Assembly: GCA_027036675.1 (NCBI GenBank)
Contig: JALWDW010000005.1
Coordinates: 1 to 46,976 of the forward strand
Reading direction: 5' to 3'
Length of the DNA stretch: 46,976 bases
Origin: Candidatus Dojkabacteria bacterium
GTDB lineage: Bacteria; Patescibacteriota; Dojkabacteria; SC72; JAHDCA01
The stretch's first letter is position 1. The number at the start of each line of letters is the position of its first letter. The translations under genes and the position numbers were made by a program. Shown piece after piece: positions 8,401 through 44,887 of the stretch. The notes under the pieces were generated by a model. It was not told the origin of the DNA. It ran no database searches and saw nothing but the letters and a program-made list of their open reading frames with translations.

Positions 8401-8437
8401 CGAACAATTTGGTCAATTTTTCCACTACACCCAGCAT
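5417..8437 (-). CDS. secA: Preprotein translocase ATPase SecA
   Basis: The ORF is 1006 aa. It has TGEGKT (Walker A), [29 protein letters not shown] and the C-terminal zinc finger [14 protein letters not shown]. Confidence 0.97.
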
Positions 8438-8474
8438 ACTATCTGTTACCTACATAAATTAATACTACACGGCA

Positions 8475-8483
8475 AGTATATCA
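8475..8483 (-). promoter_or_regulatory. Candidate extended -10 promoter (TGaTATACT) for secA
   Basis: The minus strand reads ccaTGATATACTtgcc about 38-46 nt upstream of the secA ATG. The AAGCCGGGCTT palindrome (8495-8505) lies immediately upstream, in the -35 region. Confidence 0.35.
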
Positions 8484-9279
8484 TGGATACTCCCAAGCCG
8501 GGCTTCGTACCCGGGGTTAAACCCCACCCTTGTTATAGGTAAGCCTGACCTCATGGGAATAGTACCTGCAAAATCAGGATTTTCGACATCATTGCAGACA
8601 AATTGAGACACGCGGTTGACGCCTTCACCAAAGCTTTTGTGATACACATCATGTTCGTAATTCGAAATATCCTATGACTACAAGGGTTGTTCTATCGCCT
8701 ACTGTTTTCTTGCCTGGGATGTAGAAATCCGTATACTTCCGAGCAAATGCCTGGAGAGCCTACACGCCCTGAACCCAATGACAGAGCACAATCCCACAAG
8801 TAATGGGGAAGTATTGCCGACGCGACCGGTTGGCAGGGTTCTCATCCACGACAATAAAACCTCTGTAACATCACGATCCGGCTACCGACAATATAAACTC
8901 CACCTGCCAGGATCTACTCTCGCTACATTAGGAGTATCTACATCAGCGAGGGACTAAGGAGCAGACCATTTCGAGACATCCGTACTCAGCACGGAATATA
9001 TCGGACTGCGAGCCAAAGTCACTATTTTTAGTAACCGTTTTTGGCCTTTAACCCTGAATTCTTAAGTCATCGAACAATTACGTGGCATTATAGGCCAGTT
9101 ATCGTACTTCGACCGTGAGTACGAGATTTTGCAATCATGGCAGGGTGCAAGTAAACGGCAGTGATTAAGCGTGATTACATACGCACACCAAATGTACGAA
9201 TATTTAATTTCAAATTCAGAGATATTTCATATCCGTTTGTTATTCTCTGATCAAGAAATTATATTTTTGACGATTACCT

Positions 9280-12200
9280 ATGAATACTAGCACAAAAACA
9301 AGCTTCTTCAGTGTATTGCATTACGCGTTGTTGTTATCTTTATTTGTAGCAATTTGGGCGGGAATACCGACGAGGCACGTGCTTGGATATCTGCATACAC
9401 AGTCTTCGACATTGGAAATCGACGCCGATACATATATAGAGGAAAACTTCCCAGATACGGCTCCATGGAACAATCGCAATTTTTATATCGGATTGGATAA
9501 TCTATACAACAAAGGGCATACCGTGGCATATCTGCATTACAATTTGGATGGATACAGGCAATTGTTGGAAGAAGGTCGGCTACTGGAGGCAAACTTGCAA
9601 ATATTCCAATATTATCCAAGCAACGGACAACCGTACACATTGAATATCTCTATTCCTTATGGCACTTGGGACGAAGAAAATCTGACATGGCACGACAATA
9701 TTCCCACATCGCAATATTCGACGGACATAAACCTGAGTGGCGGAGTCGGATACAAATACTTGGATATCGCGTCACTGATCCGCCTGCAGGCGCTAAACGG
9801 CTCGCTACAGGACAACGGCTTACGTCTGGCCCAGGCGGATGACAACGAGCACAGCAAGGTCTATTGGTCTATCGCATGCCTCAACCCACCCACCGGGGTC
9901 GGTTGCGTGGACGGGCAACAACCCAAGATCAGCTTATTGTTCGACGTCAACAACCCTCCGCCCACGCCATCCCCATCGTCTCCCACGAGCGGTCTGCTGT
10001 CCGGCCGATCGGACATCACCACGAGCTGGGACGCTGTGGACGATCCAGATGGAGATAACATCACATATACTCTCCAAGTTTCAACCTTACCGAGTTTTAC
10101 GTCGATCGCATACGAACATGATACGGATTCAACAAGCCTGGAGATAGGCCCGTTGGAAGACGGAGACTATTTTTGGCGACTCCGGGCCGGTGACGGAGAG
10201 AGAAACTCAGATTGGAGTAGTGCATACGGATTCACAATTGATACGGAAAATACCACAAAAATCAATTTGGTGGACGAACCAGAGTTGACGTATGGCAATG
10301 AAAACACAATTCGATGGAGTATTGTTGAATTGGATGAACATATTCATTCGGGTTTGCTTGAAGTATCAAAGGAAGCGGATTTTCCGGACGAGCTTACGCG
10401 TCAAGTGACTCTATCGTACGAACAGCTGAACTTGGGAGAAATTACAATTTCCGATCTTGCAGACGGGCAAGAATACTTCTACAGATTGAGAACCGATGAC
10501 GAAGTAGGGAATTTATCTCAATGGACGAATACCGTATCTTCCACTCAAGACCAATCACCACCGATTTTTGCGGACTTTCAGGCATCTCAACTATATATCT
10601 CACCGACAACAAGCCCAGGAATATTGGATGAAACGGAGATCTCTTTTCAAATTGACGACTTGACTGAAGTACAATGGACTTTGACATGGAGTAACGGAGG
10701 AAATAGTGGTGTCATCGCACAAACTGACGGATCAGATATTGACGGCAACCGTCATACTATCATATGGAAGCCCCTCGATTTAAGCGACGGAGATTACCTG
10801 CTGCAATTGACCGCATCCGACAAATTCGCACAAACATCTCAAAGTGATATCATTCTCGTACATATCGACAACACGCCTCCCAAGTCTCCTCATATCAAGG
10901 TTCCGCAAGACGGATATCGCACAAACAAAGACTCCGTATATTTTACTGCTGATTGCCCACGGGTCGCATCGCACCAAGTTTTGTTGGATACACGTATCGT
11001 ATATGATACATGCGACGAACAACTCATCGATATATCCGACTTAAATGACGGCCCGCATACATTATCCGTACAGTCGACCGACCGCGCCGGGAATACATCC
11101 AGCGAAGCTGTCACGTTTTCAATCGACAGGACACCACCCCGTACGCCGGATTTTGAGATCAACGCTGTCGGATCTGAACTCTATTTGGACGTCAAACCGG
11201 GTAGTACGTATAATAACCTGTCGATATTCACCAAGGCGGGAATGCTGTTGCAATCTGGTCCCAGCGTTACTCATATCAGACTTCGAGACAATTGGAGCTA
11301 CAATACAGTCTACGAATATCGCATCCGTGTATCCGACGAGTTGGGCAACACAAGCAATTTCTCAGACTGGCGAAGCTTCAAACGTATGCACGAAACACGT
11401 GTCGGCGGTGGCAACGATGACCCTACCATAAGCACGGAGTTACCCGCGGCCGAAATTTGCAATCTCACTTACGATATGAATAAACGAGCTCTGTACAGGG
11501 ATGAATGCCATGCTCCCGCACCCGTACTTGCCTCCGCAATCACTCAATCATCCGATGGCAAACAATGGATAACCTTCGGTATAGGACGTGTCAATCGACA
11601 TATACAGGCACATATACGATATATACAGTGTAAAAAACGATCGTGGCGAGACCCGCTCACATGGTTCCGTTGCGTTTCCGAGGAAGTGAAAACTGTAAAC
11701 ACGTCGATAACGCCAACAATTTCCTTCTCCGTCAATACCGGAGAATACTTGAGTACTCGTACGATTTTGGTACAAAGCGGCATCGATGACGGGTTAGTAA
11801 AATACCAGGCCTTTTCCAAAAGCAAGCCCTCCTCCCCCACCGCGTATATGACAGCTTATACTGACGCAAATATCAATGTGGAGGGCAATCTATATGATCT
11901 GCAGTTGGCACCGGTGAATTCAAATACCGTTACTATCGATTTCAAAAGTGTCGATTCGATCAAACAGGCACATGGTAAACAATTTCGATTCCCATTCGAC
12001 CATATAGTGGGGGTCACACAATGGCACGGACATACCGCATATGATCCCAACCATACGGGGATTGATTTCGGTGCGGTAAGAGAACCCATATATGCGATGG
12101 ATGACGGTTTCGTGCGGTACATAGGGTATGATACGTATTACGGACGTTGCAATAGCGGTGGAAATACCTTACGTATCGAGCACGACAACGGTATGCAAAC

Positions 12201-12486
12201 AGTATTCATGCACCTAAGTGACTATAACAACGGCAATGGTGGTTCATTGAAGGTCGGACAGCGAGTGAGCAAAGGAGATCGTATCGGTACCACAGGCAAC
12301 TCAGGCGCCGCAAATTGTAAACCGCTCGGTTACCATCTGCATATGGAAATACGCCGAGGGAGAGCCCAAAGCACGCACGTCGACCCTGTCCCATATATTG
12401 ATGTCGACTGGTCACAGGTACGTACATTGCGCGCCAGTGAATTCCCCGGACGCCTTACCGGCGACAACCCTCACCCGGGTTATTGA
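9280..12486 (+). CDS. Large membrane-anchored/secreted protein with repeated beta-sandwich (FN3/Ig-like) modules and a C-terminal M23 (LytM-type) peptidase domain
   Basis: It has an N-terminal hydrophobic helix (FFSVLHYALLLSLFVAIWAGI). Repeated modules include DPDGDNITYTLQVS..DGDYFWRLRAGD and TDRAGNTSSEAVTFSIDRTPP. The C-terminal region carries M23 motifs HTGIDFG, GNSGAAN and GYHLHMEIR. Confidence 0.9.
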   Translation: MNTSTKTSFFSVLHYALLLSLFVAIWAGIPTRHVLGYLHTQSSTLEIDADTYIEENFPDTAPWNNRNFYIGLDNLYNKGHTVAYLHYNLDGYRQLLEEGRLLEANLQIFQYYPSNGQPYTLNISIPYGTWDEENLTWHDNIPTSQYSTDINLSGGVGYKYLDIASLIRLQALNGSLQDNGLRLAQADDNEHSKVYWSIACLNPPTGVGCVDGQQPKISLLFDVNNPPPTPSPSSPTSGLLSGRSDITTSWDAVDDPDGDNITYTLQVSTLPSFTSIAYEHDTDSTSLEIGPLEDGDYFWRLRAGDGERNSDWSSAYGFTIDTENTTKINLVDEPELTYGNENTIRWSIVELDEHIHSGLLEVSKEADFPDELTRQVTLSYEQLNLGEITISDLADGQEYFYRLRTDDEVGNLSQWTNTVSSTQDQSPPIFADFQASQLYISPTTSPGILDETEISFQIDDLTEVQWTLTWSNGGNSGVIAQTDGSDIDGNRHTIIWKPLDLSDGDYLLQLTASDKFAQTSQSDIILVHIDNTPPKSPHIKVPQDGYRTNKDSVYFTADCPRVASHQVLLDTRIVYDTCDEQLIDISDLNDGPHTLSVQSTDRAGNTSSEAVTFSIDRTPPRTPDFEINAVGSELYLDVKPGSTYNNLSIFTKAGMLLQSGPSVTHIRLRDNWSYNTVYEYRIRVSDELGNTSNFSDWRSFKRMHETRVGGGNDDPTISTELPAAEICNLTYDMNKRALYRDECHAPAPVLASAITQSSDGKQWITFGIGRVNRHIQAHIRYIQCKKRSWRDPLTWFRCVSEEVKTVNTSITPTISFSVNTGEYLSTRTILVQSGIDDGLVKYQAFSKSKPSSPTAYMTAYTDANINVEGNLYDLQLAPVNSNTVTIDFKSVDSIKQAHGKQFRFPFDHIVGVTQWHGHTAYDPNHTGIDFGAVREPIYAMDDGFVRYIGYDTYYGRCNSGGNTLRIEHDNGMQTVFMHLSDYNNGNGGSLKVGQRVSKGDRIGTTGNSGAANCKPLGYHLHMEIRRGRAQSTHVDPVPYIDVDWSQVRTLRASEFPGRLTGDNPHPGY

Positions 12487-15673: not shown

Positions 15674-17260
15674 ATGCAAAAAGAATATATCCAATTAGGA
15701 AACAAAGACGTGTTCAACGGCCAATATATGTTGACTGCATTTCGTATAGAAGGGTACGACGGGAAGTCAATTTTGGACGTTGCAAGTGAGGTTGTGGCCG
15801 AATCATCAAACGGATCGAATGTACACGTCGGCTCAGGCACTTCATTTTCAGCGACAATGGGGGGTATCGTATATGAGGCGGATGAGTCCAAAAACCTTAT
15901 CTACGTCGCATACCCGTGGAGAATGTTTGATAGCGGTGGTAATGTGCAAAATATCATGACATTCATAGCCGGAAACATATTCGGCATGAGTTCGCTCAAG
16001 CAACTTAAACTTCTGGATGTATATTTCCCACCTCAGATGTTGCAACAATACGACGGGCCCAGCACAACAATCGACGACATGCGCAATTATCTGCAGGTTT
16101 ACGATAGCCCGATCCTCGGTACGATCATCAAGCCGAAAATAGGTTTGACCGCATCCGAATATGCCGAACTTTGCTACGATTTCTGGGTGGGTGGCGGTCA
16201 TTTCGTCAAAAACGATGAACCCCAGGCCGACCAGGATTTCTGTCCGTACTTCAAAATGGTTGACGGGATCCGCAGCGCGATGGACAAAGCCGAAGATGAA
16301 ACCGGACAGACAAAAGTTCATTCGTTCAACGTATCCTCGGCCGATTTTGATACAATGATACGTAGAGCCGATTACGTGTATTCCAAGATGCGCCCTGGTA
16401 GTTTTGCCTTCTTGATCGACGGAATCACAGCTGGATGGATGGCAGTACAGACTTTGCGCAGGCGTTATCCTGACGTATTTATCCATTTCCACCGGGCGGG
16501 TCACGGTGCGTATACACGCAGAGAAAACCCGTTTGGTTTTACCGTACCTGTGTTGACGAAATTCGCAAGACTTGCAGGAGCCTCGGCAATCCACACAGGC
16601 ACGCTCGGTGTCGGGAAGATGCAAGGGGATGTGAATGAAGACGGTACGGCCATGCAACAAGGTTTGCGTATACAAGCGCAAGGGCCGTATTTCAAACAGA
16701 CATGGTCCAAAGTATCGGAAGAAGACAGCGACTTGGAAACTATGATACGAGCCGAAGCCAAAATGTGGGAAGCCGGCCCGAGAGAAGTCAGCGATTTAAG
16801 GTCCAAGATAAACCATATGGATCCGCATACCAAACATGCTCACGCAGATTGGAGGCTTATCAAAAAGACCGCCCCGATAGCCTCCGGCGGACTTAATCCG
16901 GTATTATTGCCACGGCTTATCGACGAAGCCGGCACTATCGACTTCATCACCACAATGGGCGGGGGTACACATTCGCATCCGATGAAGACAGCAGCCGGTG
17001 CCAAGGCCATCGTGGAAGCTTTTCATGCGTGGAAACATGGACACACTTTACTGGATGAAGCTCACGACCATGTGGGACACGACACTGAATTGCAAAGCGC
17101 GATACGGTTCTTCGAAAAGCATGGGGTACATCTGACAGAGGAAGATCACCGCAATATCGGTGATGCTCCTGATGATGCTCAGCCGGTCGCACAAAGTCCG
17201 ACTACACATTCACAGCCGATACACGATCACCCTGATGATGCGTTCCCTAGTCAAGGGTAA
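15674..17260 (+). CDS. rbcL: Ribulose-1,5-bisphosphate carboxylase large subunit, form II or II/III-like
   Basis: It contains GTIIKPKIGL, the form II-type carbamylation/metal motif FVKNDEPQ, HFHRAGHGA and PIASGG. A roughly 45-50-aa insertion lies between ...KQTW and KKTAPIASGG. There is also a C-terminal His/Pro/Asp-rich tail (DAPDDAQPVAQSPTTHSQPIHDHPDDAFPSQG). Confidence 0.92.
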   Translation: MQKEYIQLGNKDVFNGQYMLTAFRIEGYDGKSILDVASEVVAESSNGSNVHVGSGTSFSATMGGIVYEADESKNLIYVAYPWRMFDSGGNVQNIMTFIAGNIFGMSSLKQLKLLDVYFPPQMLQQYDGPSTTIDDMRNYLQVYDSPILGTIIKPKIGLTASEYAELCYDFWVGGGHFVKNDEPQADQDFCPYFKMVDGIRSAMDKAEDETGQTKVHSFNVSSADFDTMIRRADYVYSKMRPGSFAFLIDGITAGWMAVQTLRRRYPDVFIHFHRAGHGAYTRRENPFGFTVPVLTKFARLAGASAIHTGTLGVGKMQGDVNEDGTAMQQGLRIQAQGPYFKQTWSKVSEEDSDLETMIRAEAKMWEAGPREVSDLRSKINHMDPHTKHAHADWRLIKKTAPIASGGLNPVLLPRLIDEAGTIDFITTMGGGTHSHPMKTAAGAKAIVEAFHAWKHGHTLLDEAHDHVGHDTELQSAIRFFEKHGVHLTEEDHRNIGDAPDDAQPVAQSPTTHSQPIHDHPDDAFPSQG

Positions 17261-28931: not shown

Positions 28932-29756
28932 ATGAAATTCATCAGCGCAAATACTGGGTCAAAAAGGTTTCCACCTGATGCCAAGGTTGTTTATTCATGG
29001 GGTGCGCCTACTGGCAACATGTCTCCCAAGTATATTGCGGATAACGGGCAAACTCTGGCAAAACTATCGAAGCAATACACACGTTTGACTAAATTGTATA
29101 CGGCCCAATTGTCTGATTTATTTATGATGAATCCGGAGCACGGGGTGAATCACGCAATCGTTGATGAGTACGACAAGGCCGGTACGTCATCCATAGGACG
29201 ACTCGGCACAACTGAAGTCCCGAATTCGGATATCATCATCACCACCGACCGCAGTATAATACTCGGTGCGTTGCCGGCGGATTGCATCATCGCTGTGATC
29301 ACAGATGGCAATATTTTGGCATTGGTACACGCTGGCAGACGAGGTACAGATCTTATGATCGGGTACCATGCAATAGATGCAATACTCAAGGCCAGACCTG
29401 AGACAAATATCTCGAAGCTATCCGTCTGGATCAGTCCAAACCTTTCACCTGAAAGTGGTGCAATGCCACACTACGACACATTACTAAATACCGACATCTG
29501 GATCGACAATGGATTCTTACGTGAAGTTGAGGACAACCTTAACGGGCGATATGCATTGGACATCGAAGGTTTCTTCACGTGGCAACTCACCCAAAAAGGT
29601 ATCCCCATTTCAAATATTACTTCAACAGGATTGGATACATACCAAAATGCCTTAGAGCGTAAAACTTTTTCACATCGCCTCGCTTCACAAAGGGAAGACA
29701 TTCCAAACGGACGCTTTATCGTCACTGCTCAACTGACCTCTAGCAAAGACAAATAA
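28932..29756 (+). CDS. pgeF: YfiH/PgeF (DUF152, laccase-domain) family protein
   Basis: The signature region is LPADCIIAVITDGNILALVHAGRRGT, followed by the C-terminal FSHR. Confidence 0.8.
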   Translation: MKFISANTGSKRFPPDAKVVYSWGAPTGNMSPKYIADNGQTLAKLSKQYTRLTKLYTAQLSDLFMMNPEHGVNHAIVDEYDKAGTSSIGRLGTTEVPNSDIIITTDRSIILGALPADCIIAVITDGNILALVHAGRRGTDLMIGYHAIDAILKARPETNISKLSVWISPNLSPESGAMPHYDTLLNTDIWIDNGFLREVEDNLNGRYALDIEGFFTWQLTQKGIPISNITSTGLDTYQNALERKTFSHRLASQREDIPNGRFIVTAQLTSSKDK

Positions 29757-32004: not shown

Positions 32005-33423
32005 CTATTTCACCGATTTCCCGTTAGATTTCTCTGTGTTTATATTTCCCAATTCTTCTTGTACTACGGCAACATCGTCCCACGGTATTTCGTGGATCCC
32101 GTCAATATTCATACTTTGTTCATGACCTTTACCGGTGATCAAGACAAGTGACCCGGGTTTGGCAAGTTGCAATGCTTGCCGTATCGCTTCGCGCCGATCG
32201 GGGATATCATATACTTCCACCTTCCGTCCACTGTCTTCCAACTCTCGATCTATACCACGCCTGATTTCACTATTTATTTTCTTGACCGATTCGCCTCTAG
32301 GATCTTCCGCAGTCAGTATCACCATGTCGGCGTAGCGGGAGGCCCATTTCCCCATTTCGGGCCTTTTGTATGTATCCCGCTTGGACGCCGCGCCGAAGAC
32401 TACGATGAGTTGCTTGTTCTCTTGTATGTCTCGAGCATATTTCAGCACTTGATGCAGGCTGTTTGGCGTGTGGGCAAAGTCCACGACTACGGAGTACGGT
32501 CGGGTTTGGATAATTTGCCATCTCCCCCTCAGGCCATGCAGAGAGGACAACGCTTTGACTGCGTCACGGGGTGCGACGGCCAACGCCGCCGCCGCGACAG
32601 CGGCGGCGGCGTTGTATGCGTTGTAAACTCCGCCCACCGGCAATCGCACAGCATACCGCTCGGATACTTCCGCATGAGTCTCATTTTGACCACGAACGAT
32701 AAGGTCAAATGATACGTGATTGATGTCCTCCGCCTTGATATGCTCGATCTTATAATCACAATCCTCATTCGTACCATACGTGCGAAGTTGAATATCCGGA
32801 GCTTGGGCCGATATTTGTTTGTACTTAGACAATAACCGGTCAAAACTTTTGTCGTCCCGATTTAATACCGCAAGACCTCCGGGTTTCAGTTTCTCGATCA
32901 GTCGTCCTTTGACATTGACAAGGTTCTCGTACGTACCGTGGTGGTCCAAATGTTCGTTGGATATATTGGTAAAGACGGCGACTTCGAATTTAATTCCCTC
33001 GACCCTATGTTGGTAAAGCCCGTGTGATGTTGTTTCCAAGACGACATACTTCAGTCCTTTTTTGACCGCTTGTGCCAAAAGCTTCTGCAAGACCCGCGGG
33101 TCGGGGTTGGTCACATGGAGCCCGGTGGGAGATGTATCGTCACCCAATTTCGCGGCTATGGTAGATATCAACGCAACTTTCCCAAGGTTCTCGTTTAGTA
33201 TATGGTAGATCATCGTAGATGTAGTGGTCTTCCCGTCGGTCCCCGTCACACCGATCACCGTCAGTTTCCGTGCGGGGAACCGATAGTACAGGTTCCAAAA
33301 CCACGCCTTAGGCAAATGCCAGAAGGTGTTGATCAGGGCCTGGCATTTGAAGTCGGGGTTCAACCCCAGGGTTGAACCCCAGGCTTGACATATGTGCGTA
33401 ACCACTCTGCGGATTCTCGACAT
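32005..33423 (-). CDS. murE: UDP-N-acetylmuramoyl-L-alanyl-D-glutamate--diamino acid ligase MurE
   Basis: It contains VIGVTGTDGKTTTSTMIYHIL, the Mur ligase central and C-terminal domains, and EDPRGE where DAP-type MurE enzymes carry DNPR. Confidence 0.88.
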   Translation of the reverse strand: MSRIRRVVTHICQAWGSTLGLNPDFKCQALINTFWHLPKAWFWNLYYRFPARKLTVIGVTGTDGKTTTSTMIYHILNENLGKVALISTIAAKLGDDTSPTGLHVTNPDPRVLQKLLAQAVKKGLKYVVLETTSHGLYQHRVEGIKFEVAVFTNISNEHLDHHGTYENLVNVKGRLIEKLKPGGLAVLNRDDKSFDRLLSKYKQISAQAPDIQLRTYGTNEDCDYKIEHIKAEDINHVSFDLIVRGQNETHAEVSERYAVRLPVGGVYNAYNAAAAVAAAALAVAPRDAVKALSSLHGLRGRWQIIQTRPYSVVVDFAHTPNSLHQVLKYARDIQENKQLIVVFGAASKRDTYKRPEMGKWASRYADMVILTAEDPRGESVKKINSEIRRGIDRELEDSGRKVEVYDIPDRREAIRQALQLAKPGSLVLITGKGHEQSMNIDGIHEIPWDDVAVVQEELGNINTEKSNGKSVK

Positions 33424-33454: not shown

Positions 33455-34567
33455 CTACCACCCCAAAAAAAGCCCCAAAACCGCGGCAAGTGCCCCAATC
33501 AGCCAAAATCTCATCACCACCTTCTCCTCAGACCAGCCCCTAAATTGCAGATCGAGGTGCAACGGGGCAATTTTAAAAAGCCTTCGCCCGCGCAATATCC
33601 TATACACACTTTGCAAAAGCGACGAGCTGATGATTATTACAAACATGACCCCAACCACCGGCAACAATACGACTCTGTCCAGAGCAAACGCGATTGAAGC
33701 CATCATAGCACCCAATGCCAATGAACCGACGTCCCCCATCTCAAATCGTGCTGGTTTGATATTGAAATACAAATATGCCAATAGAGTCCCGATTGTCACT
33801 GAAATCAGCAACGATAGATCTGGATTGCCTTTGTGAATGGCAAACACCAACAGTGCACCGAATACCGGGATCGCCAATCCCGACGCCAATCCGTCTGCGC
33901 CGTCCGCTATATTCACAGCATTTGCCATCGATACGACTGTAAATACAATAAGCACCGGCATCAGGATTCCCAGCTTCAACGGCTCATGAAAAGGCAACCA
34001 TATGGTATCCCAACCCAGTCGGTAGTATATCCACCAGGCCACCATCACTCCCGCCCCAATTTGGACGAGTATTTTTTCACCGGCCTGTATACCTTTACCC
34101 GGATTGGAACCAAGCCTATACCAAAAATTCAGGTACATATTCCAGGGCAATTCCAAAAACAACCTGACCCGCTTCAGTTTGCTCCTATGAACTCGTACAA
34201 GCCGCCATTGTTTCCCGACAGGACGCAAAATCCTTTTACGGCCGTATATATTCAACACATCGTCAAGGCCCCCAAGTAATGCGGTCCCGAGCAATACGAT
34301 GATTGGCACGTATGTATTGCCGTTCCAATTGAAAAGCAGCGTTAGTATCGCAGTGGTAAGCACGATCAATAACCCTCCCATGATCGGAGTACCGGCTTTC
34401 GTGCCTTTTGTGTATACAATATGCGCATATTCGTTTTTGCTCAGCCTGACTATCTTGAATTTGTACAATACATGTATAAGTACGGGAGCCCAAGCCATCG
34501 AGATTGCAAATGACACCAAGATAAAAAACATTGATTCTTGAAACAAGCCATCTATATGAAAATGCAT
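33455..34567 (-). CDS. mraY: Phospho-N-acetylmuramoyl-pentapeptide transferase MraY
   Basis: The protein is polytopic, with GGLDDVLNIYGR, NAVNIADGADGLA and the C-terminal HLDLQFRGW region. Confidence 0.95.
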   Translation of the reverse strand: MHFHIDGLFQESMFFILVSFAISMAWAPVLIHVLYKFKIVRLSKNEYAHIVYTKGTKAGTPIMGGLLIVLTTAILTLLFNWNGNTYVPIIVLLGTALLGGLDDVLNIYGRKRILRPVGKQWRLVRVHRSKLKRVRLFLELPWNMYLNFWYRLGSNPGKGIQAGEKILVQIGAGVMVAWWIYYRLGWDTIWLPFHEPLKLGILMPVLIVFTVVSMANAVNIADGADGLASGLAIPVFGALLVFAIHKGNPDLSLLISVTIGTLLAYLYFNIKPARFEMGDVGSLALGAMMASIAFALDRVVLLPVVGVMFVIIISSSLLQSVYRILRGRRLFKIAPLHLDLQFRGWSEEKVVMRFWLIGALAAVLGLFLGW

Positions 34568-34572
34568 GTCGG

Positions 34573-35430
34573 TTACTTCTTCCTCAAATTACTGTGACAT
34601 TCCTCAGATATAATATCATTGCGGAGTTTGTCAAAAAACTTCAATCGTCTCAATCCGTTATCATCGGCGTTGTTTTTCATACCCTCCAGGGTCCAGCATT
34701 TATTGGCTTTACTATCCCAATCCTTCCAATTCTGTGTCTCCAGAGGCTCATCGGGGGAGGTTATCTCGATACGCCCCCTACGTACACCGTTTTGATCACC
34801 GTACTGCTCGTTGGAATTAACATACTCTATCTCAACAACCTTATGGCCTTTTTTCAACACCTTGGACACCAACAGTACGTGATCTCCTCGTTTGACACCT
34901 TTGGTCCGTATAAGATCTCCCGGCATCACTTCATTGAGGTGGACTCTATCCGTGTTTTTGTCGGAAGTCAGGATGTTTGCGCTAATATTTGAAATAGGAC
35001 GTAATCTCACTTTGATATGGGATAATAAATTCCTATACGGGTAATCCAAATTGGACAGCAATGAACCGGCATGCGCATGATGAATCCAATAATCCAATAC
35101 CTGTGCGACAAAACCGGAACAATCAATACCCAACCCGTGTTCACTCATAAACTGACGGATTTGCTCTTTGCCCATTTTTTGTAGATCGACACCCTTCAAC
35201 TGAGCGATAATCCGAGTCTCCAGTGCGATCTCGTCAGGCGAGCCTTTACCGACCAATGATCGCAAATCCGAATGGGAACGTTTGACATTGCGATAATACG
35301 GCACAGGCACCCGGACGTCAAATATACGCAATCCTTCATACTGCTTGATAAATGACTCCACATAGGACGGCAATTTGTATTCAGTGCAAACACCATTACT
35401 TTTGTTTGTCGCAGATTTGGGATTTTTCAT
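34573..35430 (-). CDS. NlpC/P60-like cysteine hydrolase
   Basis: The catalytic Cys context is GLGIDCSGFVAQV, with a downstream His context MPGDLIRTKGVKRGDHVLLVSKV. There is no obvious signal peptide or TM helix. The gene ends 5 nt before mraY. Confidence 0.65.
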   Translation of the reverse strand: MKNPKSATNKSNGVCTEYKLPSYVESFIKQYEGLRIFDVRVPVPYYRNVKRSHSDLRSLVGKGSPDEIALETRIIAQLKGVDLQKMGKEQIRQFMSEHGLGIDCSGFVAQVLDYWIHHAHAGSLLSNLDYPYRNLLSHIKVRLRPISNISANILTSDKNTDRVHLNEVMPGDLIRTKGVKRGDHVLLVSKVLKKGHKVVEIEYVNSNEQYGDQNGVRRGRIEITSPDEPLETQNWKDWDSKANKCWTLEGMKNNADDNGLRRLKFFDKLRNDIISEECHSNLRKK

Positions 35431-35436
35431 ATGTTT

Positions 35437-36882
35437 TCAGCTGATTATAGCATTGTCGAGCAGAAACGCCGTATCTATATTTTCATGCGAACATGCACAT
35501 TGTATCCTGGAAAACTCCGTCCCGACAGATACGTTTTGTCCATCTGCAGTATGAGTATACAAAAATTCACCTTCACCGACATTACGGAATGCATATGTTT
35601 CCCTCAGCATCGAGCGGGTACTGCCAGCGTAAACACCGATTGGTTTTTTGAACTTGTAAGCGGTCGGAGCGTCCCCGGTATTGCGGGCTAGTATCTGTGA
35701 AGCCTTGATATTGTCAAACGCATGGGAATTATAATCCTCCATATACTCATCGATATTCCGCGCGTCTATCGGTGTACCCAACCAGCGGGGATTTACACTC
35801 GACATATTTCCCCGAACCTCATTGACAACTCCATACCTCTTATACCGTGCGGATTTGCTCGCACTCATGAACCAATCTATATGAAAAGCCTCGAGAGGTA
35901 TCCACCCTCGGCCTTCATCCAGCATTGCATGCATACTTACAGAGGCTGTCTGACGAGCGTTCACTTCTATGATGACTGGGCGGTCGGCATTCACCATGAA
36001 ATCCACCCCAAAAAGGCCATAATACGACCGGGCGGTCAGCATCCTCCCGATATTCTCTATCTCCGCACGCAACGCATCTTTTACATTGGCGGACAGTTCA
36101 TCAGACTTGGACCAATCATTGCCGACGGTCCCTCCATCCACATACGGAGTCAAACCCGGCAACCCGGTGATCTGAAAAGACAACCCGCCGTACAAAACGC
36201 CTTCGGGCAAGTTTACGGCATTGATAGTCCACGTCGCTCCGTCCAACATTTCACTGACACGCACTTGCAGCCCCGTATGCTTTTGGACGATCTTTTCGTA
36301 TTCTCCCTCACCTGTAATGAATTTCGTGCCTGTACCGGAATGCCCTCTATCAAGTTGGACAACCAGGTTTTGAGTACCCAACTTTTGAGTTAACTTTTTA
36401 TACGAACCCTCGGTCAGTGTTGTAATCACAGACTTCGGGATGGTGATGCCATACTTCACAAACAATTCGTGTTGAGATACTTTTTTCTCGATCGTTGCAG
36501 ACACTTGTGCGGAAGCGTTTAGCAGTCTATATCCAAACATAGAAGCCAATCTTTCAATCTTCTCCGATATTTTGAATACTATGATATTTGGTTTGTATCC
36601 ACTGTCGTGTAATCCGGTATTTTCCAAGTACTCATCTGTGTGAGAAGAAATAAATTCACGAACGATATCTTGTTGCATCAACTTAGCCGTACTACGAAAT
36701 ATAGGGTTCGGGGTTTTCAAGGTTTCTCCCAAAGAAAAAACACTGACACAAGTTTCCCGCAGGTATGGGATCATAGGATGATCGTCGATACAAACTATAT
36801 GGAAGTTTTTGTATAATTTCTCCAATCCGAGAGCCCTTTCCGGATCGTTTGTCAGGTAAAAGACAGGTTCGTTCATCACCAA
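35437..36882 (-). CDS. ATP-grasp family ligase, substrate unknown
   Basis: The ATP-grasp core contains LVVQLDRGHSGTGTKFI and YYGLFGVDFMVNADRPVIIEVNARQTAS. It has N- and C-terminal extensions of about 100 aa that I cannot assign. Confidence 0.75.
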   Translation of the reverse strand: MVMNEPVFYLTNDPERALGLEKLYKNFHIVCIDDHPMIPYLRETCVSVFSLGETLKTPNPIFRSTAKLMQQDIVREFISSHTDEYLENTGLHDSGYKPNIIVFKISEKIERLASMFGYRLLNASAQVSATIEKKVSQHELFVKYGITIPKSVITTLTEGSYKKLTQKLGTQNLVVQLDRGHSGTGTKFITGEGEYEKIVQKHTGLQVRVSEMLDGATWTINAVNLPEGVLYGGLSFQITGLPGLTPYVDGGTVGNDWSKSDELSANVKDALRAEIENIGRMLTARSYYGLFGVDFMVNADRPVIIEVNARQTASVSMHAMLDEGRGWIPLEAFHIDWFMSASKSARYKRYGVVNEVRGNMSSVNPRWLGTPIDARNIDEYMEDYNSHAFDNIKASQILARNTGDAPTAYKFKKPIGVYAGSTRSMLRETYAFRNVGEGEFLYTHTADGQNVSVGTEFSRIQCACSHENIDTAFLLDNAIIS

Positions 36883-36903: not shown

Positions 36904-37878
36904 TTATATACCACCGGTCATCAATATCACGCTGCCGTTCAAGCGCTCAGGGTTTTTCGCAGTCCGTACCGCCCGCACAAATCCCGCAATCGCCAACGCG
37001 CCCTCATGCGATGTAGACAAATGCTCCCCGGAGCTTATGATCTCGTCCAAGTCCTCTTGACGAATCATATTTCGCACTTCGCTGACCGCACGGTCGTCCA
37101 TAACCCACCCCCGACCTCCTGTCGCAACTACAGCTGCCAACACTTCTTTTTTCCTATGCGCCACTTTGTCCACGATACTGTCTACAATACTAGTTTTCGT
37201 AGCTCCGACCGCCCGGTCAAACTCCGGATCGATACTCTCGGCGATTGTATAAACCCTTGTCGTCTGTACTATATGCAATGCAGGGATACGAAATTCACGA
37301 TACTCGATATGTATTTTCGCAAATCCGTCATATATCCCCACCGTCGTCGTACCGCTTGAGACGGGTATGAAAAGTGCCGGTATCTCTCCGTACTTTTTAT
37401 ACGGAAATTCGTCATAAATCTCAACGGCTATATTTTCATACCCTTTGGTGGCGTATTTATCAGTGGAACCTCGCAACAATGTCGATCCATGCTCTGTAGC
37501 AAACATATGCGCGTGAGAGATCGTTTTCGCTTCAATATGTACGGTGGTATGGGCTGGATTGACATAATTGCGCAATTTGCTCAGTTTTGCGGAGCTGATA
37601 CGCGGACTTATGAAAATATCCAGGTTGATGGGTCGCTGCGTGGTCGTTTGGTTTAACCTGTCTACCACGTATGCACCAGCTATTGCGGAGTTACCGGACG
37701 ACGATATCACAAAATTTCGCCGTCCATCGTCTATATGGGCCAATACTTGTTCGTATATTCCTCGTATTTTATGCGAACCGGTCACATTTAGATCTTCTCT
37801 TTTCAACAGAATCTCGTAAGATTCACCATCCACATTGATTTTTATTGCCTCCAACGGAGTTTTTTTACTCATATCCAT
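36904..37878 (-). CDS. Fold-type II PLP-dependent enzyme (threonine synthase/dehydratase/serine racemase-like)
   Basis: The PLP-lysine motif is LKREDLNVTGSHKIRG. It also has the SSSGNSAIAGA loop and the glycine-rich loop PVSSGTTTVG. Confidence 0.8.
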   Translation of the reverse strand: MDMSKKTPLEAIKINVDGESYEILLKREDLNVTGSHKIRGIYEQVLAHIDDGRRNFVISSSGNSAIAGAYVVDRLNQTTTQRPINLDIFISPRISSAKLSKLRNYVNPAHTTVHIEAKTISHAHMFATEHGSTLLRGSTDKYATKGYENIAVEIYDEFPYKKYGEIPALFIPVSSGTTTVGIYDGFAKIHIEYREFRIPALHIVQTTRVYTIAESIDPEFDRAVGATKTSIVDSIVDKVAHRKKEVLAAVVATGGRGWVMDDRAVSEVRNMIRQEDLDEIISSGEHLSTSHEGALAIAGFVRAVRTAKNPERLNGSVILMTGGI

Positions 37879-37883
37879 GGCAA

Positions 37884-37892
37884 ATCATAACA
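37884..37892 (-). promoter_or_regulatory. Extended -10 element (TGtTATGAT) 5 nt before the ATG of the PLP-enzyme gene
   Basis: The minus strand reads ttTGTTATGATttgccATG. It would give a leaderless transcript heading the PLP - ATP-grasp - P60 - mraY - murE - murC - rsmI gene string. Confidence 0.4.
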
Positions 37893-37933
37893 AAATGCCA
37901 CGAAGGATGGAAGTTACATGCGGGCGTAATAAA

Positions 37934-37942
37934 TGTTATACT
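37934..37942 (+). promoter_or_regulatory. Extended -10 element (TGtTATACT) upstream of the small LysW-like ORF
   Basis: The sequence aaATGTTATACTctg lies about 33 nt before ATG 37975. It has the same ATGTTAnAnT form as the tmk and tyrS elements. Confidence 0.35.
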
Positions 37943-37974
37943 CTGCAAACAATTAAGATAATACGTATAATGAC

Positions 37975-38151
37975 ATGGAAGAGAACAATACTACTGTCAT
38001 TTGTCCTGAATGTGGCAACCCCATCACCGTGGAAGACGGCAAAGTAGTGGGCGACATCATCGAGTGTGAGACTTGCTTGACTACTTGTGAAGTCGTCGAT
38101 GTCGCTGATGATGGGGCATTGGAAATCGAACTGGTCGAAGAAGAGAAGTAG
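37975..38151 (+). CDS. Small zinc-ribbon protein with an acidic tail, LysW/ArgW (amino-group carrier protein)-like
   Basis: This is a 58-aa ORF, below the 60-aa cutoff of the supplied track: MEENNTTVICPECGNPITVEDGKVVGDIIECETCLTTCEVVDVADDGALEIELVEEEK. The pattern CPxCG-x(15)-CxxC-x(4)-EVV followed by an acidic tail matches LysW as I recall it. However, the C-terminus is EEEK rather than EDWGE. Confidence 0.55.
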   Translation: MEENNTTVICPECGNPITVEDGKVVGDIIECETCLTTCEVVDVADDGALEIELVEEEK

Positions 38152-38396
38152 CTGACCGACATACCGCATCTGCTGAACGTCCCTCCACGGAACGATTCTG
38201 ACAGTTTGGAAACCGCTACACCCTCAACATCAACCTTACTATCGGGATATCGCACCGAGGGTGTTGAGCTTTCATCTATGGGAAAAAGTCTCTCCCAACG
38301 GCGGGGATGGTCCTCGGGAATGGGAAGGCTGGCAGAACCGCGAAGGCTGTACTCGTGCAACAAGTAACCACACTCAGGTAACGCGCGATTCACCTG

Positions 38397-38613
38397 TGGT
38401 GAAATTTTCATTAAAGTTTCATCTGCGGTCGCACACAACCAAGCCTACTACGACTGGTGGTCGCAACTAGACCATCATTGATCTGTACGCAGTGTGAGAA
38501 TTTCATTGGTTTGTCATCCGCAGGAATGGAACCCATGGATTAGAGTGGCCGACAGGATAAGCAAATCAACGCCATGCGGATTTGTCAAAAGCTTTCATTC
38601 GCAGTCACACACT
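38397..38613 (+). repeat. Three degenerate repeat blocks spaced about 90 bp apart, each holding two TTTCAT/TTGTCA half-sites 11 bp apart
   Basis: Block 1 is TTTTCATtaaaGTTTCATctgcggtcgcacaca (38404-38436). Block 2 is ATTTCATtggtTTGTCATccgcagg (38500-38524). Block 3 is TTTGTCAaaagCTTTCATtcgcagtcacacac (38581-38612). Blocks 1 and 3 match at about 21 of 25 positions over AAAG(C)TTTCATYYGCRGTCRCACAC. Confidence 0.55.
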
Positions 38614-38660
38614 GCCATACACCACTTGCGACGGTTTGCAAATGAGGGCAACAGCAGCCC

Positions 38661-43248: not shown

Positions 43249-44478
43249 TTATGTCTTATTTTGTTTGGCAATATTCAGCAACAATGCAATCCCGGCCAGG
43301 TTCACTATCATGGCCGAGCCACCGTATGTCAAAAAAGGCAATGGGATACCAGTCAACGGGATGACACCGATATTAGCCGATATATTCAACATCGCTTGTG
43401 CAAAAAGCCATACCACGATGCCAACCCCGACCAGTTTAGCCTCATAATCGCTTGTATTTCGCACTATCTTGATACCGTAATACAGAAACCCCAACCACAG
43501 CGCGATGAAGATCAACCCACCGATCAACCCGGTTTCCTCCAGCATCACGGCGATGATCGAGTCCGTATGAGCCTCGAAGCCCAAGTATCCGAATTTTTGA
43601 CGGGAAGCACCCAACCCCCTTCCAAACCAACCGCCCGAACCTACCGCATACAATATTTGTTGCAGTTGATAGCCTTTGCCCAAAGGATCGAGCACGGCAC
43701 CAGTCGTCAGTAAATGTGTATACACCGCGATCCGCTCCGATCTGTACGACGCCAGACTCGCAGAGATCAGACCCAATATACCGGCTACAGCCCCCAACGC
43801 CATAGTGCCGTACGTATGGATTTTGTCCTCGCTTGACACAAAGAATACGGCCGTTACTACAAATCCTATGATTGCCGCAGTGCCCAGATCCCTTTCCAAC
43901 AATACCAAGCCAAGCACGAAGATCAATAAAATACCAAAGTACATAAATTTCTGTCCAACCCCCGACCTTTTGAGACTGGCCAGTCCTTTGTAATTTGTAT
44001 TCCACTTAGGTAACCATGAAGCCATGTATATGATCATCCCCAATTTGGCGAATTCCGCAGGCTGTATCGGTATACCTGCAACTCGTATCCATCGGGACGC
44101 CCCGTTTCTTGCCGAAACACCCAAAAGACCGTTGTCTATTTTCATCAGCGGGATCACCAAGATCGCTACCAGGAGAAATAAAACCCCGCCCATGATGAAC
44201 ACCGACATTCTTTGTAGCAGTTTGTAATTCAGGTTATAAAGTATCCAAGCCAATACCACCGCTATGAATGTCCAAATGATTTGCAATTTGACATAATAAA
44301 ATCTGTCGTAATGCGACAAAGCGCTTCGTCCGGCAGTATAGACACTTGCATCAAACACCATCAGTACCCCAAAGAGTACCATAAAGACCGTGAAAATTTT
44401 GATATATCCAGAAGCCGTCTCCAACTCCTTATTCACGTATTTTGCTTTTGACCTTCTGCCACTGGAAATATTTTTCAT
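43249..44478 (-). CDS. ftsW: SEDS-family peptidoglycan polymerase FtsW/RodA
   Basis: The protein is polytopic and 409 aa long. It carries the SEDS signatures HTDSIIAVMLEETGLIGG and PLTGIPLPFLTYGGSAM. It lies immediately upstream of murG. Confidence 0.9.
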   Translation of the reverse strand: MKNISSGRRSKAKYVNKELETASGYIKIFTVFMVLFGVLMVFDASVYTAGRSALSHYDRFYYVKLQIIWTFIAVVLAWILYNLNYKLLQRMSVFIMGGVLFLLVAILVIPLMKIDNGLLGVSARNGASRWIRVAGIPIQPAEFAKLGMIIYMASWLPKWNTNYKGLASLKRSGVGQKFMYFGILLIFVLGLVLLERDLGTAAIIGFVVTAVFFVSSEDKIHTYGTMALGAVAGILGLISASLASYRSERIAVYTHLLTTGAVLDPLGKGYQLQQILYAVGSGGWFGRGLGASRQKFGYLGFEAHTDSIIAVMLEETGLIGGLIFIALWLGFLYYGIKIVRNTSDYEAKLVGVGIVVWLFAQAMLNISANIGVIPLTGIPLPFLTYGGSAMIVNLAGIALLLNIAKQNKT

Positions 44479-44548
44479 AAATCAGTATACTATTTGTAAA
44501 CAGGATGTACTATACTATTTTCATCGGAATATATGTAATCACAAAGCT

Positions 44549-44887
44549 ATGGAAGGAAATACAAACAACACTGCGGATCCAACAACAGGTTTACCGCAAA
44601 CCCAGCCCCCGACCCCGAAACCTGTACCGACTCAGCCGACATTGCACCCGAAGCAACCCACCCCCAACACGGAGACTGCCACACAGACTACCCAACAAAA
44701 TGTGCAAAACTCGAACACGCCGAATGACCCGTTGCTGACCGACAAAACGTTTTCGGAGGATCTGACAGCTCGTTGGAATAGTTGGAAATGCATGGTGTGT
44801 GGATACGTTTACGAAGGGGTCCGCCCCAGGACTACCTGCCCTCGATGCGGTAACAGTGATCCTGACAAATTTTTAGATATAGACTGA
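44549..44887 (+). CDS. Small protein with a P/T/Q-rich N-terminal half and a C-terminal rubredoxin-type zinc ribbon
   Basis: ORF 44390..44887 is trimmed to ATG 44549 because the upstream part overlaps ftsW. The C-terminus is WKCMVCGYVYEGVRPRTTCPRCGNSDPDKF (CxxC-x13-CxxC). Confidence 0.6.
   Translation: MEGNTNNTADPTTGLPQTQPPTPKPVPTQPTLHPKQPTPNTETATQTTQQNVQNSNTPNDPLLTDKTFSEDLTARWNSWKCMVCGYVYEGVRPRTTCPRCGNSDPDKFLDID

Follow-up and report, generated by a model that had tools for sequence, protein, structure and literature searches.

To our knowledge, carrier chemistry of the LysW type (amino-group carrier proteins, AmCP) has so far always involved a terminal Glu, and its known products are limited to lysine, arginine and a few Streptomyces metabolites. 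In AmCP pathways, the substrate is loaded onto a small protein, modified there and released by hydrolysis; in LysW, the attachment site is the C-terminal Glu, whose gamma-carboxylate makes the isopeptide bond (PMC9303977). A second type of pathway is represented by CysM–CysO, in which a pyridoxal phosphate (PLP) enzyme of fold type II takes the C-terminus of a small protein as its co-substrate and a peptidase frees the amino acid (PMC12910592). MetM, a homolog of threonine synthase, works likewise with MetO (bioRxiv 10.1101/2024.10.14.618325). In this work, a LysW-like zinc-ribbon protein with a different C-terminus, called ZnR, is analyzed together with its neighbors. Its gene lies in the genome of Candidatus Dojkabacteria bacterium (GenBank assembly GCA_027036675.1), in a stretch of 46,976 nucleotides of contig JALWDW010000005.1, referred to as the window. 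An initial annotation of this DNA had described ZnR as a 58-aa open reading frame (ORF) and had considered it a divergent LysW/ArgW carrier, a target of RimK-type poly-glutamylation, or an unrelated zinc ribbon. As set out below, ZnR is a real gene and part of a conserved four-gene module tied to peptidoglycan precursor synthesis, and the chances are about even that this module works as a LysW-type carrier of reversed polarity.

The ZnR gene and its conservation

The ORF runs from ATG to stop, and its translation is exactly the 58-aa sequence that had been quoted for it; the coordinates, the zinc ribbon and the acidic tail of the initial annotation were all correct.

37975-38151, plus strand: ZnR, acidic LysW-like zinc-ribbon protein, 58 aa, ending in ...LVEEEK; identified by translation, Pfam and PDB profile matches, and selection

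The protein combines the CPEC...CETC motifs with an acidic tail and has EEEK at its C-terminus. Asp/Glu residues outnumber Lys/Arg by 17 to 2, giving a net charge of about -15. In the family alignment, C10, C13, C31, C34 and K58 are invariant. A word-indexed homolog search with the single 58-aa sequence returned only the protein itself, and phmmer together with a profile search was needed to find its relatives. About 30 small proteins align with ZnR end to end in an exhaustive phmmer search of 1.8 billion representatives, and the family profile recovers 1,222 clusters at E<=1e-3. The gene had been described as hidden below the ORF-track threshold, which holds for the length cut-off of that first reading; gene callers do annotate it in public contigs, and five independent metagenome contigs carry a gene call for the identical protein.

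In the conservation check proposed at the outset, the reading frame proves to be kept in relatives and to be under purifying selection. The ratio of non-synonymous to synonymous substitution rates (dN/dS) is 0.03-0.19 for moderately diverged pairs, with non-synonymous/synonymous changes of 3/16 and 5/16 in two examples. These values come from the more distant pairs, the closest strains (L002-L005) being uninformative with ZnR DNA that is 100% identical; the strain contigs show no differences in either ZnR or the 96-bp spacer upstream of it. Homologs of ZnR are found in the same gene context across dozens of genomes. Because of this purifying selection, the gene calls on five contigs, the 1,222 clusters and the conserved synteny, the 58-aa ORF is a real conserved gene, a conclusion that is near-certain.

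The opposite explanation takes the ORF to be spurious, with a longer ORF on the other strand as the true gene or no real feature there whatsoever. The initial annotation had warned of this 161-aa ORF, which does exist and overlaps ZnR.

37953-38438, minus strand: antisense ORF, 161 aa, judged spurious and outside the system; no family match

The antisense strand is stop-free across the whole gene in 16 of 50 ZnR homologs and closed in the other 34, the 5' part of the antisense ORF falls in a fast-evolving gap, and its product matches no family in NCBIfam or Pfam. The worry that it might be the true gene is refuted by these counts. A spurious ZnR would fit the short length of the ORF, its want of an obvious Shine-Dalgarno sequence and the nature of the upstream promoter match. 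Given the selection, the clusters and the synteny, together with an antisense frame that is not kept open, this explanation is scarcely credible.

The upstream match lies in the spacer that separates ZnR from the divergently transcribed gene of a PLP enzyme.

37879-37974, no strand: divergent intergenic region between ZnR and the PLP enzyme gene, 96 bp; holds the promoter-like GTTACA-18-TGtTATACT

The TGtTATACT element, proposed earlier as a -10-like box belonging to ZnR, is present. The complete promoter-like sequence at 37913-37942 (plus strand) is a consensus match only and is no commoner than in shuffled sequence, with one found against 1.7 expected. The scan for promoters and terminators around ZnR as a whole gave results at chance level.

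Relationship to LysW

The LysW-like layout that had been recognized in ZnR is borne out by profile comparisons. The protein scores 29.6 bits against the Pfam family PF21344 (Zn_ribbon_LysW), above the gathering score of 27. The best PDB matches of the ZnR family profile are LysW proteins, from T. kodakarensis (5k2m_E, 1.4e-8) and T. thermophilus (3wwl, 7e-8), and Sulfolobus LysW is also matched (3vpb_E, 1e-3). On these comparisons, ZnR is a near-certain homolog of the globular zinc-ribbon domain of LysW.

The C-terminal tail is different. A search against LysW models, as had been suggested, succeeded with Pfam and failed with NCBIfam, where ZnR misses the cut-offs of both models (29.6 against 75 for NF041070 and 13.9 against 53.2 for TIGR01206). 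The departure of EEEK from the canonical EDWGE, already pointed out in the initial annotation, proves to be a property of the whole family: the last residue is Lys in 187 of 187 relatives (73/73 unique sequences and 114/114 further ones) and never Glu. Most tails read (I/V)EEEK, and the rest are DEGK, EEGK and a few variants; Glu occupies position -3 in 68 of the 73 unique sequences. One canonical LysW (P0151) came up among the search results, and its tail is EDWGE. The tail D-E-G-K of clade B has the same spacing as D-W-G-E of that LysW, with the terminal acid swapped for an amine.

These features bear directly on whether ZnR could be a canonical LysW/ArgW amino-group carrier for the biosynthesis of lysine or arginine (ornithine). 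Such a role would agree with the Pfam match, the acidic tail and the name "lysine biosynthesis protein LysW" that JGI gives to several relatives. However, both NCBIfam cut-offs are missed, a C-terminal Glu occurs in none of the 187 relatives, the neighboring ATP-grasp ligase is not of the LysX/RimK type, and the context is invariably peptidoglycan synthesis. No genes of the LysX, LysZ, LysY, LysJ or LysK type are present among the annotated ORFs of the window or the genes called in the relatives' loci examined. Because the NCBIfam cut-offs are missed, Lys replaces the attachment Glu, and the partners are not LysX, LysZ, LysY, LysJ and LysK, ZnR is, as far as sequence can tell, not a functional LysW/ArgW of lysine or arginine biosynthesis, and a canonical role is very improbable. 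Of the carrier reading first proposed, the domain homology stands, whereas the tail, the ligase class and the neighbors are not those of LysW/ArgW. ZnR represents a separate large family, so far restricted to Patescibacteria.

Two further roles were rejected. Modification by RimK in the manner of S6, which includes the poly-glutamylation target suggested earlier, is contradicted by the invariant terminal Lys in place of Glu and by the absence of a RimK-type ligase at the locus. A DNA-binding regulator was rejected on account of the strongly negative net charge.

Members of the family, among them P0175, P0187 and P0259, carry various names in databases: "sulfonate ABC transporter" at NCBI, "lysine biosynthesis protein LysW", RpoP and S27E at JGI, and in some cases hypothetical protein. 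These names look wrong or over-specific. One relative of 103 aa (P0132) has two tandem LysW-like zinc ribbons, the second of which ends in IEEEK.

A four-gene module in the peptidoglycan cluster

Next to ZnR, on the opposite strand, lie three genes for enzymes that accompany it in relatives: a PLP enzyme (PALP), an ATP-grasp ligase and a candidate hydrolase (X285). Two genes of peptidoglycan synthesis follow.

36904-37878, minus strand: PALP, fold-type II PLP enzyme, threonine-synthase-like, 324 aa; Pfam PALP 5.5e-25
35437-36882, minus strand: ATP-grasp carboxylate-amine ligase, 481-aa ORF; Pfam ATP-grasp_3 and ATPgrasp_ST
34573-35430, minus strand: X285, candidate Cys/His hydrolase, diverged NlpC/P60-like (papain fold), 285 aa; invariant Cys/His
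33455-34567, minus strand: MraY; TIGR00445 1.8e-52, Glycos_transf_4; directly downstream of the module in the same operon direction
32005-33423, minus strand: MurE, UDP-MurNAc-tripeptide synthetase; TIGR01085 379 bits, above cut-off

The window is largely a peptidoglycan (dcw) cluster that includes MraZ, MraW, FtsI, MurA, Tmk, MurB, a PgeF/YfiH-like protein, RsmI, a MurC-like ligase, MurE and MraY. Beyond MraY come X285, the ATP-grasp ligase, PALP and, on the opposite strand, ZnR, followed by a ClpC/B-like ATPase, TrmB, MurG and FtsW. The source is a Patescibacterium of hydrothermal vents, with DNA of the window occurring in metagenomes from such sites. Homologs of its ATP-grasp ligase carry names such as Dojkabacteria and Nomurabacteria.

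The comparison with other genomes was anchored on the ATP-grasp ligase. Its relatives occur in 395 species-level genomes, all of those listed being metagenome-assembled genomes of the Patescibacteria type, and 80 loci were fetched. Co-occurrence was counted in the 34 species genomes whose ATP-grasp gene is flanked by 7 kb or more on each side. ZnR is found in 29 of these fully flanked loci and PALP in the same 29, so that both or neither are present in 34 of 34; X285 occurs, separate or fused, in 33, and MraY in 26. X285 always comes after the ATP-grasp gene. In 43 of 44 loci, ZnR and PALP are direct neighbors transcribed divergently, the median gap between them being 65 bp, and this arrangement is kept even where other Mur genes separate the pair from ATP-grasp, X285 and MraY. 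In three loci (L018, L023, L032), ZnR is co-directional with the ATP-grasp gene and lies 0-26 bp upstream of it. Even very divergent ZnR variants (P0155, P0160) are still encoded beside the PLP enzyme, the ATP-grasp ligase and a Mur ligase or MraY. Genes resembling MurC, MurD, MurE and MurF surround the module, with MurF-like ligases close by, and in one locus (L006) an alanine racemase gene adjoins it. An ORF with the Ddl signature E.N..PG.T was found in none of 92 loci, a count that covers about 1.1 Mb of dcw neighborhoods and these loci only. ZnR, PALP, the ATP-grasp ligase and X285 are a conserved module tied to peptidoglycan precursor synthesis. A full-text literature search returned no description of it.

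The MurE of the window has EDPR at the position of the DNPR motif, as do four orthologs from other genomes (L009, L015, L016, L031). EDPR is compatible with substrates of the diaminopimelate (DAP) type and also with Thermotoga-like Lys-adding enzymes. The motif hints, though not decisively, that the substrate for position 3 has a distal carboxylate.

The three partner enzymes

The PALP family profile matches threonine synthases in the PDB over the full length (2zsj, 8e-33; 6cgq, 2e-30; 2d1f, 2e-28). Lower-scoring matches include threonine and serine dehydratases, aspartate and serine racemases (aspartate racemase 5ybw, 5e-20), CysM and SbnA. The protein falls far below the cut-offs of all NCBIfam threonine-synthase models, with 64.6 bits against 266 for the best of them. 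PALP enzymes have an SSGN loop and an invariant PLP lysine, Lys36, in GSHK(D/I)R (consensus GSHKDR), in agreement with the S-x-K-D-R motif of threonine synthases. The threonine-synthase segment NSVNPYRIEGQK (NSxNPxRxEGQK) aligns with LRGSxDxxALxGY in PALP, and the Arg of this segment, which has a functional role in threonine synthases, is absent. PALP is accordingly classed as threonine-synthase-like, but it appears not to be a threonine synthase.

The ATP-grasp ORF begins at TTG in the ORF list, and the strain contigs call a protein of 479 aa; the true start is likely the ATG two codons in, at 36876. An AlphaFold2 model of the ligase reaches a predicted local distance difference test (pLDDT) score of 94. 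Its top Foldseek matches are PurD, the L-amino-acid ligase (Lal) 3vot, PurK, PurT and biotin carboxylase, with TM values of about 0.5. Neither LysX nor RimK appears among the top 50 Foldseek matches, and NCBIfam and Pfam give no RimK/LysX match. Profile comparison yields 7r8p and 8yi6, the latter being BesA, a Glu-amino-acid ligase. There are also weak Pfam matches of the tubulin tyrosine ligase (TTL) and YheCD types, and sequence searches against the PDB gave nothing useful.

In X285, the motif G-x-D/E-C103-S-G and H183 are invariant in 24 sequences that share 26-44% identity with the window protein. Pfam gives a weak NLPC_P60 match (E 0.008, 16.5 bits against a threshold of 23) and, on a relative, Amidase_6. 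The AlphaFold2 model, built from a shallow alignment of five rows, has a pLDDT of 84. Its best Foldseek matches are MepS/Spr and gamma-D-Glu-diamino-acid endopeptidases (2evr), and they are weak (E 0.012-0.04, TM ~0.2-0.4). A PDB profile search reached E ~0.7, and sequence search against the PDB gave nothing useful. Several genomes encode the two as one protein of about 720-770 aa, with X285 joined to the C-terminal end of the ATP-grasp ligase (proteins P0005, P0006, P0038 and P0116; loci L008 at 7001-9220, L058 and L066).

Proposed mechanism and alternatives

ATP-grasp enzymes all activate a carboxylate and hand it to an amine, and in LysX this carboxylate belongs to the terminal Glu of the carrier. 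Because the structural neighbors of the window's ATP-grasp ligase activate small-molecule carboxylates, and because the carrier end has changed from Glu to Lys, a reversed polarity is suggested. ZnR would offer the amine of its terminal Lys, whereas LysW offers the side-chain carboxylate of its terminal Glu to the amino group of the substrate. The ATP-grasp enzyme, of the PurD/L-amino-acid-ligase type, would activate a carboxyl group of a small amino-acid substrate and tie this cargo to the Lys. The tethered cargo would keep its free alpha-amino group, allowing PALP to modify it by replacement, elimination or racemization. PALP could act on such a cargo because an amino acid held by its carboxyl group can form the PLP aldimine, while one held by its amino group, as in LysW, cannot. 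The Cys/His amidase of the NlpC/P60-like type would then cut the same amide bond and free the product. Since MurC-, MurD-, MurE- and MurF-like genes surround the module, the product would presumably be used by a Mur ligase, in a step before MraY. We infer the covalent loading, the order of the steps and the identity of the cargo, and with them the chemistry and the product; that the module is a carrier of reversed polarity serving peptidoglycan synthesis we hold to be about equally probable as its contrary. In an alternative version that follows the pattern of CysM–CysO and MetM–MetO, the epsilon-amine of the Lys could be the nucleophile for a PLP-bound intermediate, after which the hydrolase would remove the modified terminal residue and the ligase would add Lys again.

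Several points weigh against a carrier of this kind. In 5 of the 34 fully flanked loci, neither ZnR nor PALP lies within 8 kb of the ATP-grasp gene. X285 matches NlpC/P60 only weakly in structure (E ~0.01) and with a sub-threshold Pfam score, and the fold match of the ATP-grasp ligase (TM ~0.5) does not reveal its substrates. PALP could act on free amino acids without a carrier. Moreover, the three enzymes alone resemble a racemase/ligase/peptidase set that does not need ZnR.

The last two points lead to an explanation without a carrier, in which the three enzymes work directly on free amino acids or peptidoglycan precursors. PALP would be a racemase, and the ATP-grasp enzyme a D-amino-acid or dipeptide ligase, either a non-orthologous stand-in for Ddl or a side-chain ligase like D-Asp ligase. 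Editing would fall to the NlpC/P60-like protein as a dipeptidase, on the model of vanT-vanC-vanXY or racD-asl. ZnR would then bind the PLP enzyme non-covalently, as a subunit for regulation or specificity, or would be a decoy resembling the ...Glu-Lys terminus of the stem tripeptide. Serine and aspartate racemases share the fold of PALP, and the PALP profile matches both serine racemases and the aspartate racemase 5ybw (5e-20); still, its best full-length matches are threonine synthases, and an alanine racemase gene already lies beside the module in L006. The best structural matches of the ATP-grasp enzyme include an L-amino-acid ligase, and the nearby MurF-like ligases need a dipeptide donor. 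The missing Ddl signature (0/92 loci, ~1.1 Mb) points the same way, although it covers the examined loci and not whole genomes. The loci that have ATP-grasp and X285 but no ZnR and PALP nearby also fit. However, this explanation does not account for the invariant C-terminal Lys (187/187) on a domain of the LysW type, which is known for covalent carriage. The translational closeness of ZnR to the ATP-grasp gene in three genomes also speaks against it. On balance, a module without a carrier is the one rival to be taken seriously, possible but rather unlikely.

The conserved tail itself allows a different explanation, namely that its modification is an end in itself. [quoted passage not shown] Both Glu at -3 and Lys at -1 are conserved, with a small or flexible residue (E/G) between them, the ATP-grasp enzyme has the weak TTL and YheCD-type matches, and a ligase paired with a papain-fold hydrolase recalls tubulin tyrosine ligase and vasohibin. 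In contrast, the structure of the ATP-grasp enzyme is of the PurD/Lal/biotin-carboxylase type and not RimK- or MdnC-like, and the always-adjacent PLP enzyme would have no role. Conservation across many classes of Patescibacteria within the dcw cluster also looks like primary cell-wall metabolism and not like a natural product. Tail modification for its own sake is considered unlikely.

Within the carrier of reversed polarity, a more specific version is conceivable. Patescibacteria lack most amino-acid biosynthesis, and they might use a ribosomally made, pre-charged ZnR to build a peptidoglycan-specific amino acid, a lysinoalanine-like surrogate of DAP. In this version, the encoded C-terminal Lys, whose alpha-amine is tied up in the peptide bond, would attack an aminoacrylate-type intermediate on the threonine-synthase-like enzyme. 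The resulting lysinoalanine-like diamino-dicarboxylic acid would be clipped off by the NlpC/P60-like enzyme, and the ATP-grasp ligase would recharge the carrier with free lysine. MurE, whose EDPR retains the Arg of the DAP-type DNPR, would install the product at position 3. This version is speculative and, on present grounds, unlikely.

Downstream region and other features of the window

Between ZnR and the ClpC/B-like gene lie 509 bp without a convincing ORF (38152-38660), which is unusual for a compact genome. Near-identical strain contigs differ most in this gap, by 10-14 substitutions and a 12-bp indel. It contains no pseudogene remnant and no Rfam match, and Rfam gave no match in or around the ZnR gene either. 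In relatives, this position is occupied by a PgeF/YfiH-like gene or another ORF. A gene of the Cu-oxidase_4 family (PgeF/YfiH, peptidoglycan editing factor-like) lies 22-110 bp downstream of ZnR on the same strand in L008 (4933-5974), L010 (4825-5915) and L015 (5825-6915). The window's own PgeF/YfiH-like gene is located elsewhere, at 28932-29756.

The window holds three further features of note. A homolog of the RuBisCO large subunit (528 aa; RuBisCO_large 6e-84) is encoded at 15674-17260 on the plus strand; RuBisCO homologs have been reported for some candidate-phyla-radiation bacteria. At 9280-12486 on the plus strand lies the gene of a protein of 1,068 aa that combines Ig-like (Big_13) and C-terminal M23 peptidase domains, possibly a large secreted cell-wall hydrolase of the kind that epibiotic Patescibacteria might use on their hosts. 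An ORF at 44390-44887 on the plus strand has a rubredoxin-like (RUBY_RBDX) match in its C-terminal part. Since it runs over the 5' end of FtsW, which is encoded on the other strand, any real gene there is probably shorter.

Significance

The family combines a LysW domain, in which the reactive end is swapped for an invariant Lys, with a different class of ATP-grasp enzyme, a PLP enzyme and a Cys hydrolase, and the module sits inside the cell-division and cell-wall cluster of hundreds of Patescibacteria species. The database names "lysine biosynthesis protein LysW" and "sulfonate ABC transporter" are corrected for these genes. If the carrier of reversed polarity is real, it would be a "carboxyl-group carrier", the counterpart of the amino-group carriers. 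It would also point to an unrecognized step or building block in the peptidoglycan of the candidate phyla radiation, and it would provide a concrete four-protein system that could be reconstituted in E. coli. Should the pre-charged version be true, the carrier chemistry would be new, as would the route to a building block of the cell wall, and possibly also a stem-peptide residue across the superphylum.

Comparison with known systems

The closest relatives of ZnR are the AmCP proteins LysW and ArgW of Thermus, Sulfolobus, Thermococcus and Streptomyces. They share a homologous CxxC...CxxC zinc ribbon, a very acidic composition, a length of about 55 aa and a flexible C-terminal tail of equal length with D-x-G-x spacing. 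In both cases, the small protein is encoded together with an ATP-grasp ligase and a hydrolase, in keeping with a logic of loading, modification and release. However, the terminal Lys of ZnR makes attachment through a gamma-carboxylate impossible. The ligase is PurD/Lal-like and not LysX/RimK-like, the candidate releasing enzyme is a papain-fold Cys hydrolase instead of the M20 metallopeptidase LysK, and modification would fall solely to a PLP enzyme of fold type II. The genomic setting is the peptidoglycan cluster of Patescibacteria and not lysine or arginine biosynthesis.

The CysO–CysM–Mec and MetO–MetM systems resemble the ZnR module in logic only, in that a threonine-synthase-like enzyme stands constantly beside a small protein. 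CysO and MetO have the beta-grasp fold of ThiS/MoaD and a Gly-Gly thiocarboxylate end, whereas ZnR is a zinc ribbon ending in EEEK. The ZnR module includes neither an adenylating enzyme of the MoeZ type nor a JAMM protease, and its nucleophile would be an amine and not sulfur.

Glutathionylspermidine synthetase/amidase combines, in one polypeptide, an ATP-grasp-type ligase and a papain/CHAP-fold Cys amidase that make and break one amide bond between them; a comparable cycle is formed by tubulin tyrosine ligase and vasohibin. The ATP-grasp/X285 fusions (P0005, P0006, P0038, P0116) recall this arrangement of ligase and amidase. There is no detectable sequence relationship, however, and the order is reversed, with the hydrolase at the C-terminus. 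The amine partner proposed for the ZnR module is a protein Lys, and a PLP enzyme is included.

Two cell-wall-linked systems offer a further parallel. In vanC-vanXY-vanT, an amino-acid-converting enzyme is combined with an ATP-grasp ligase and a peptidase, while the D-aspartate ligase Aslfm, together with aspartate racemase, acylates a Lys preceded by Glu, at the epsilon-amine of this Lys. Unlike the ZnR module, neither system needs a carrier protein, and their racemases have other folds; the ...Glu-Lys-COOH tail of ZnR nevertheless resembles the acceptor of Aslfm.

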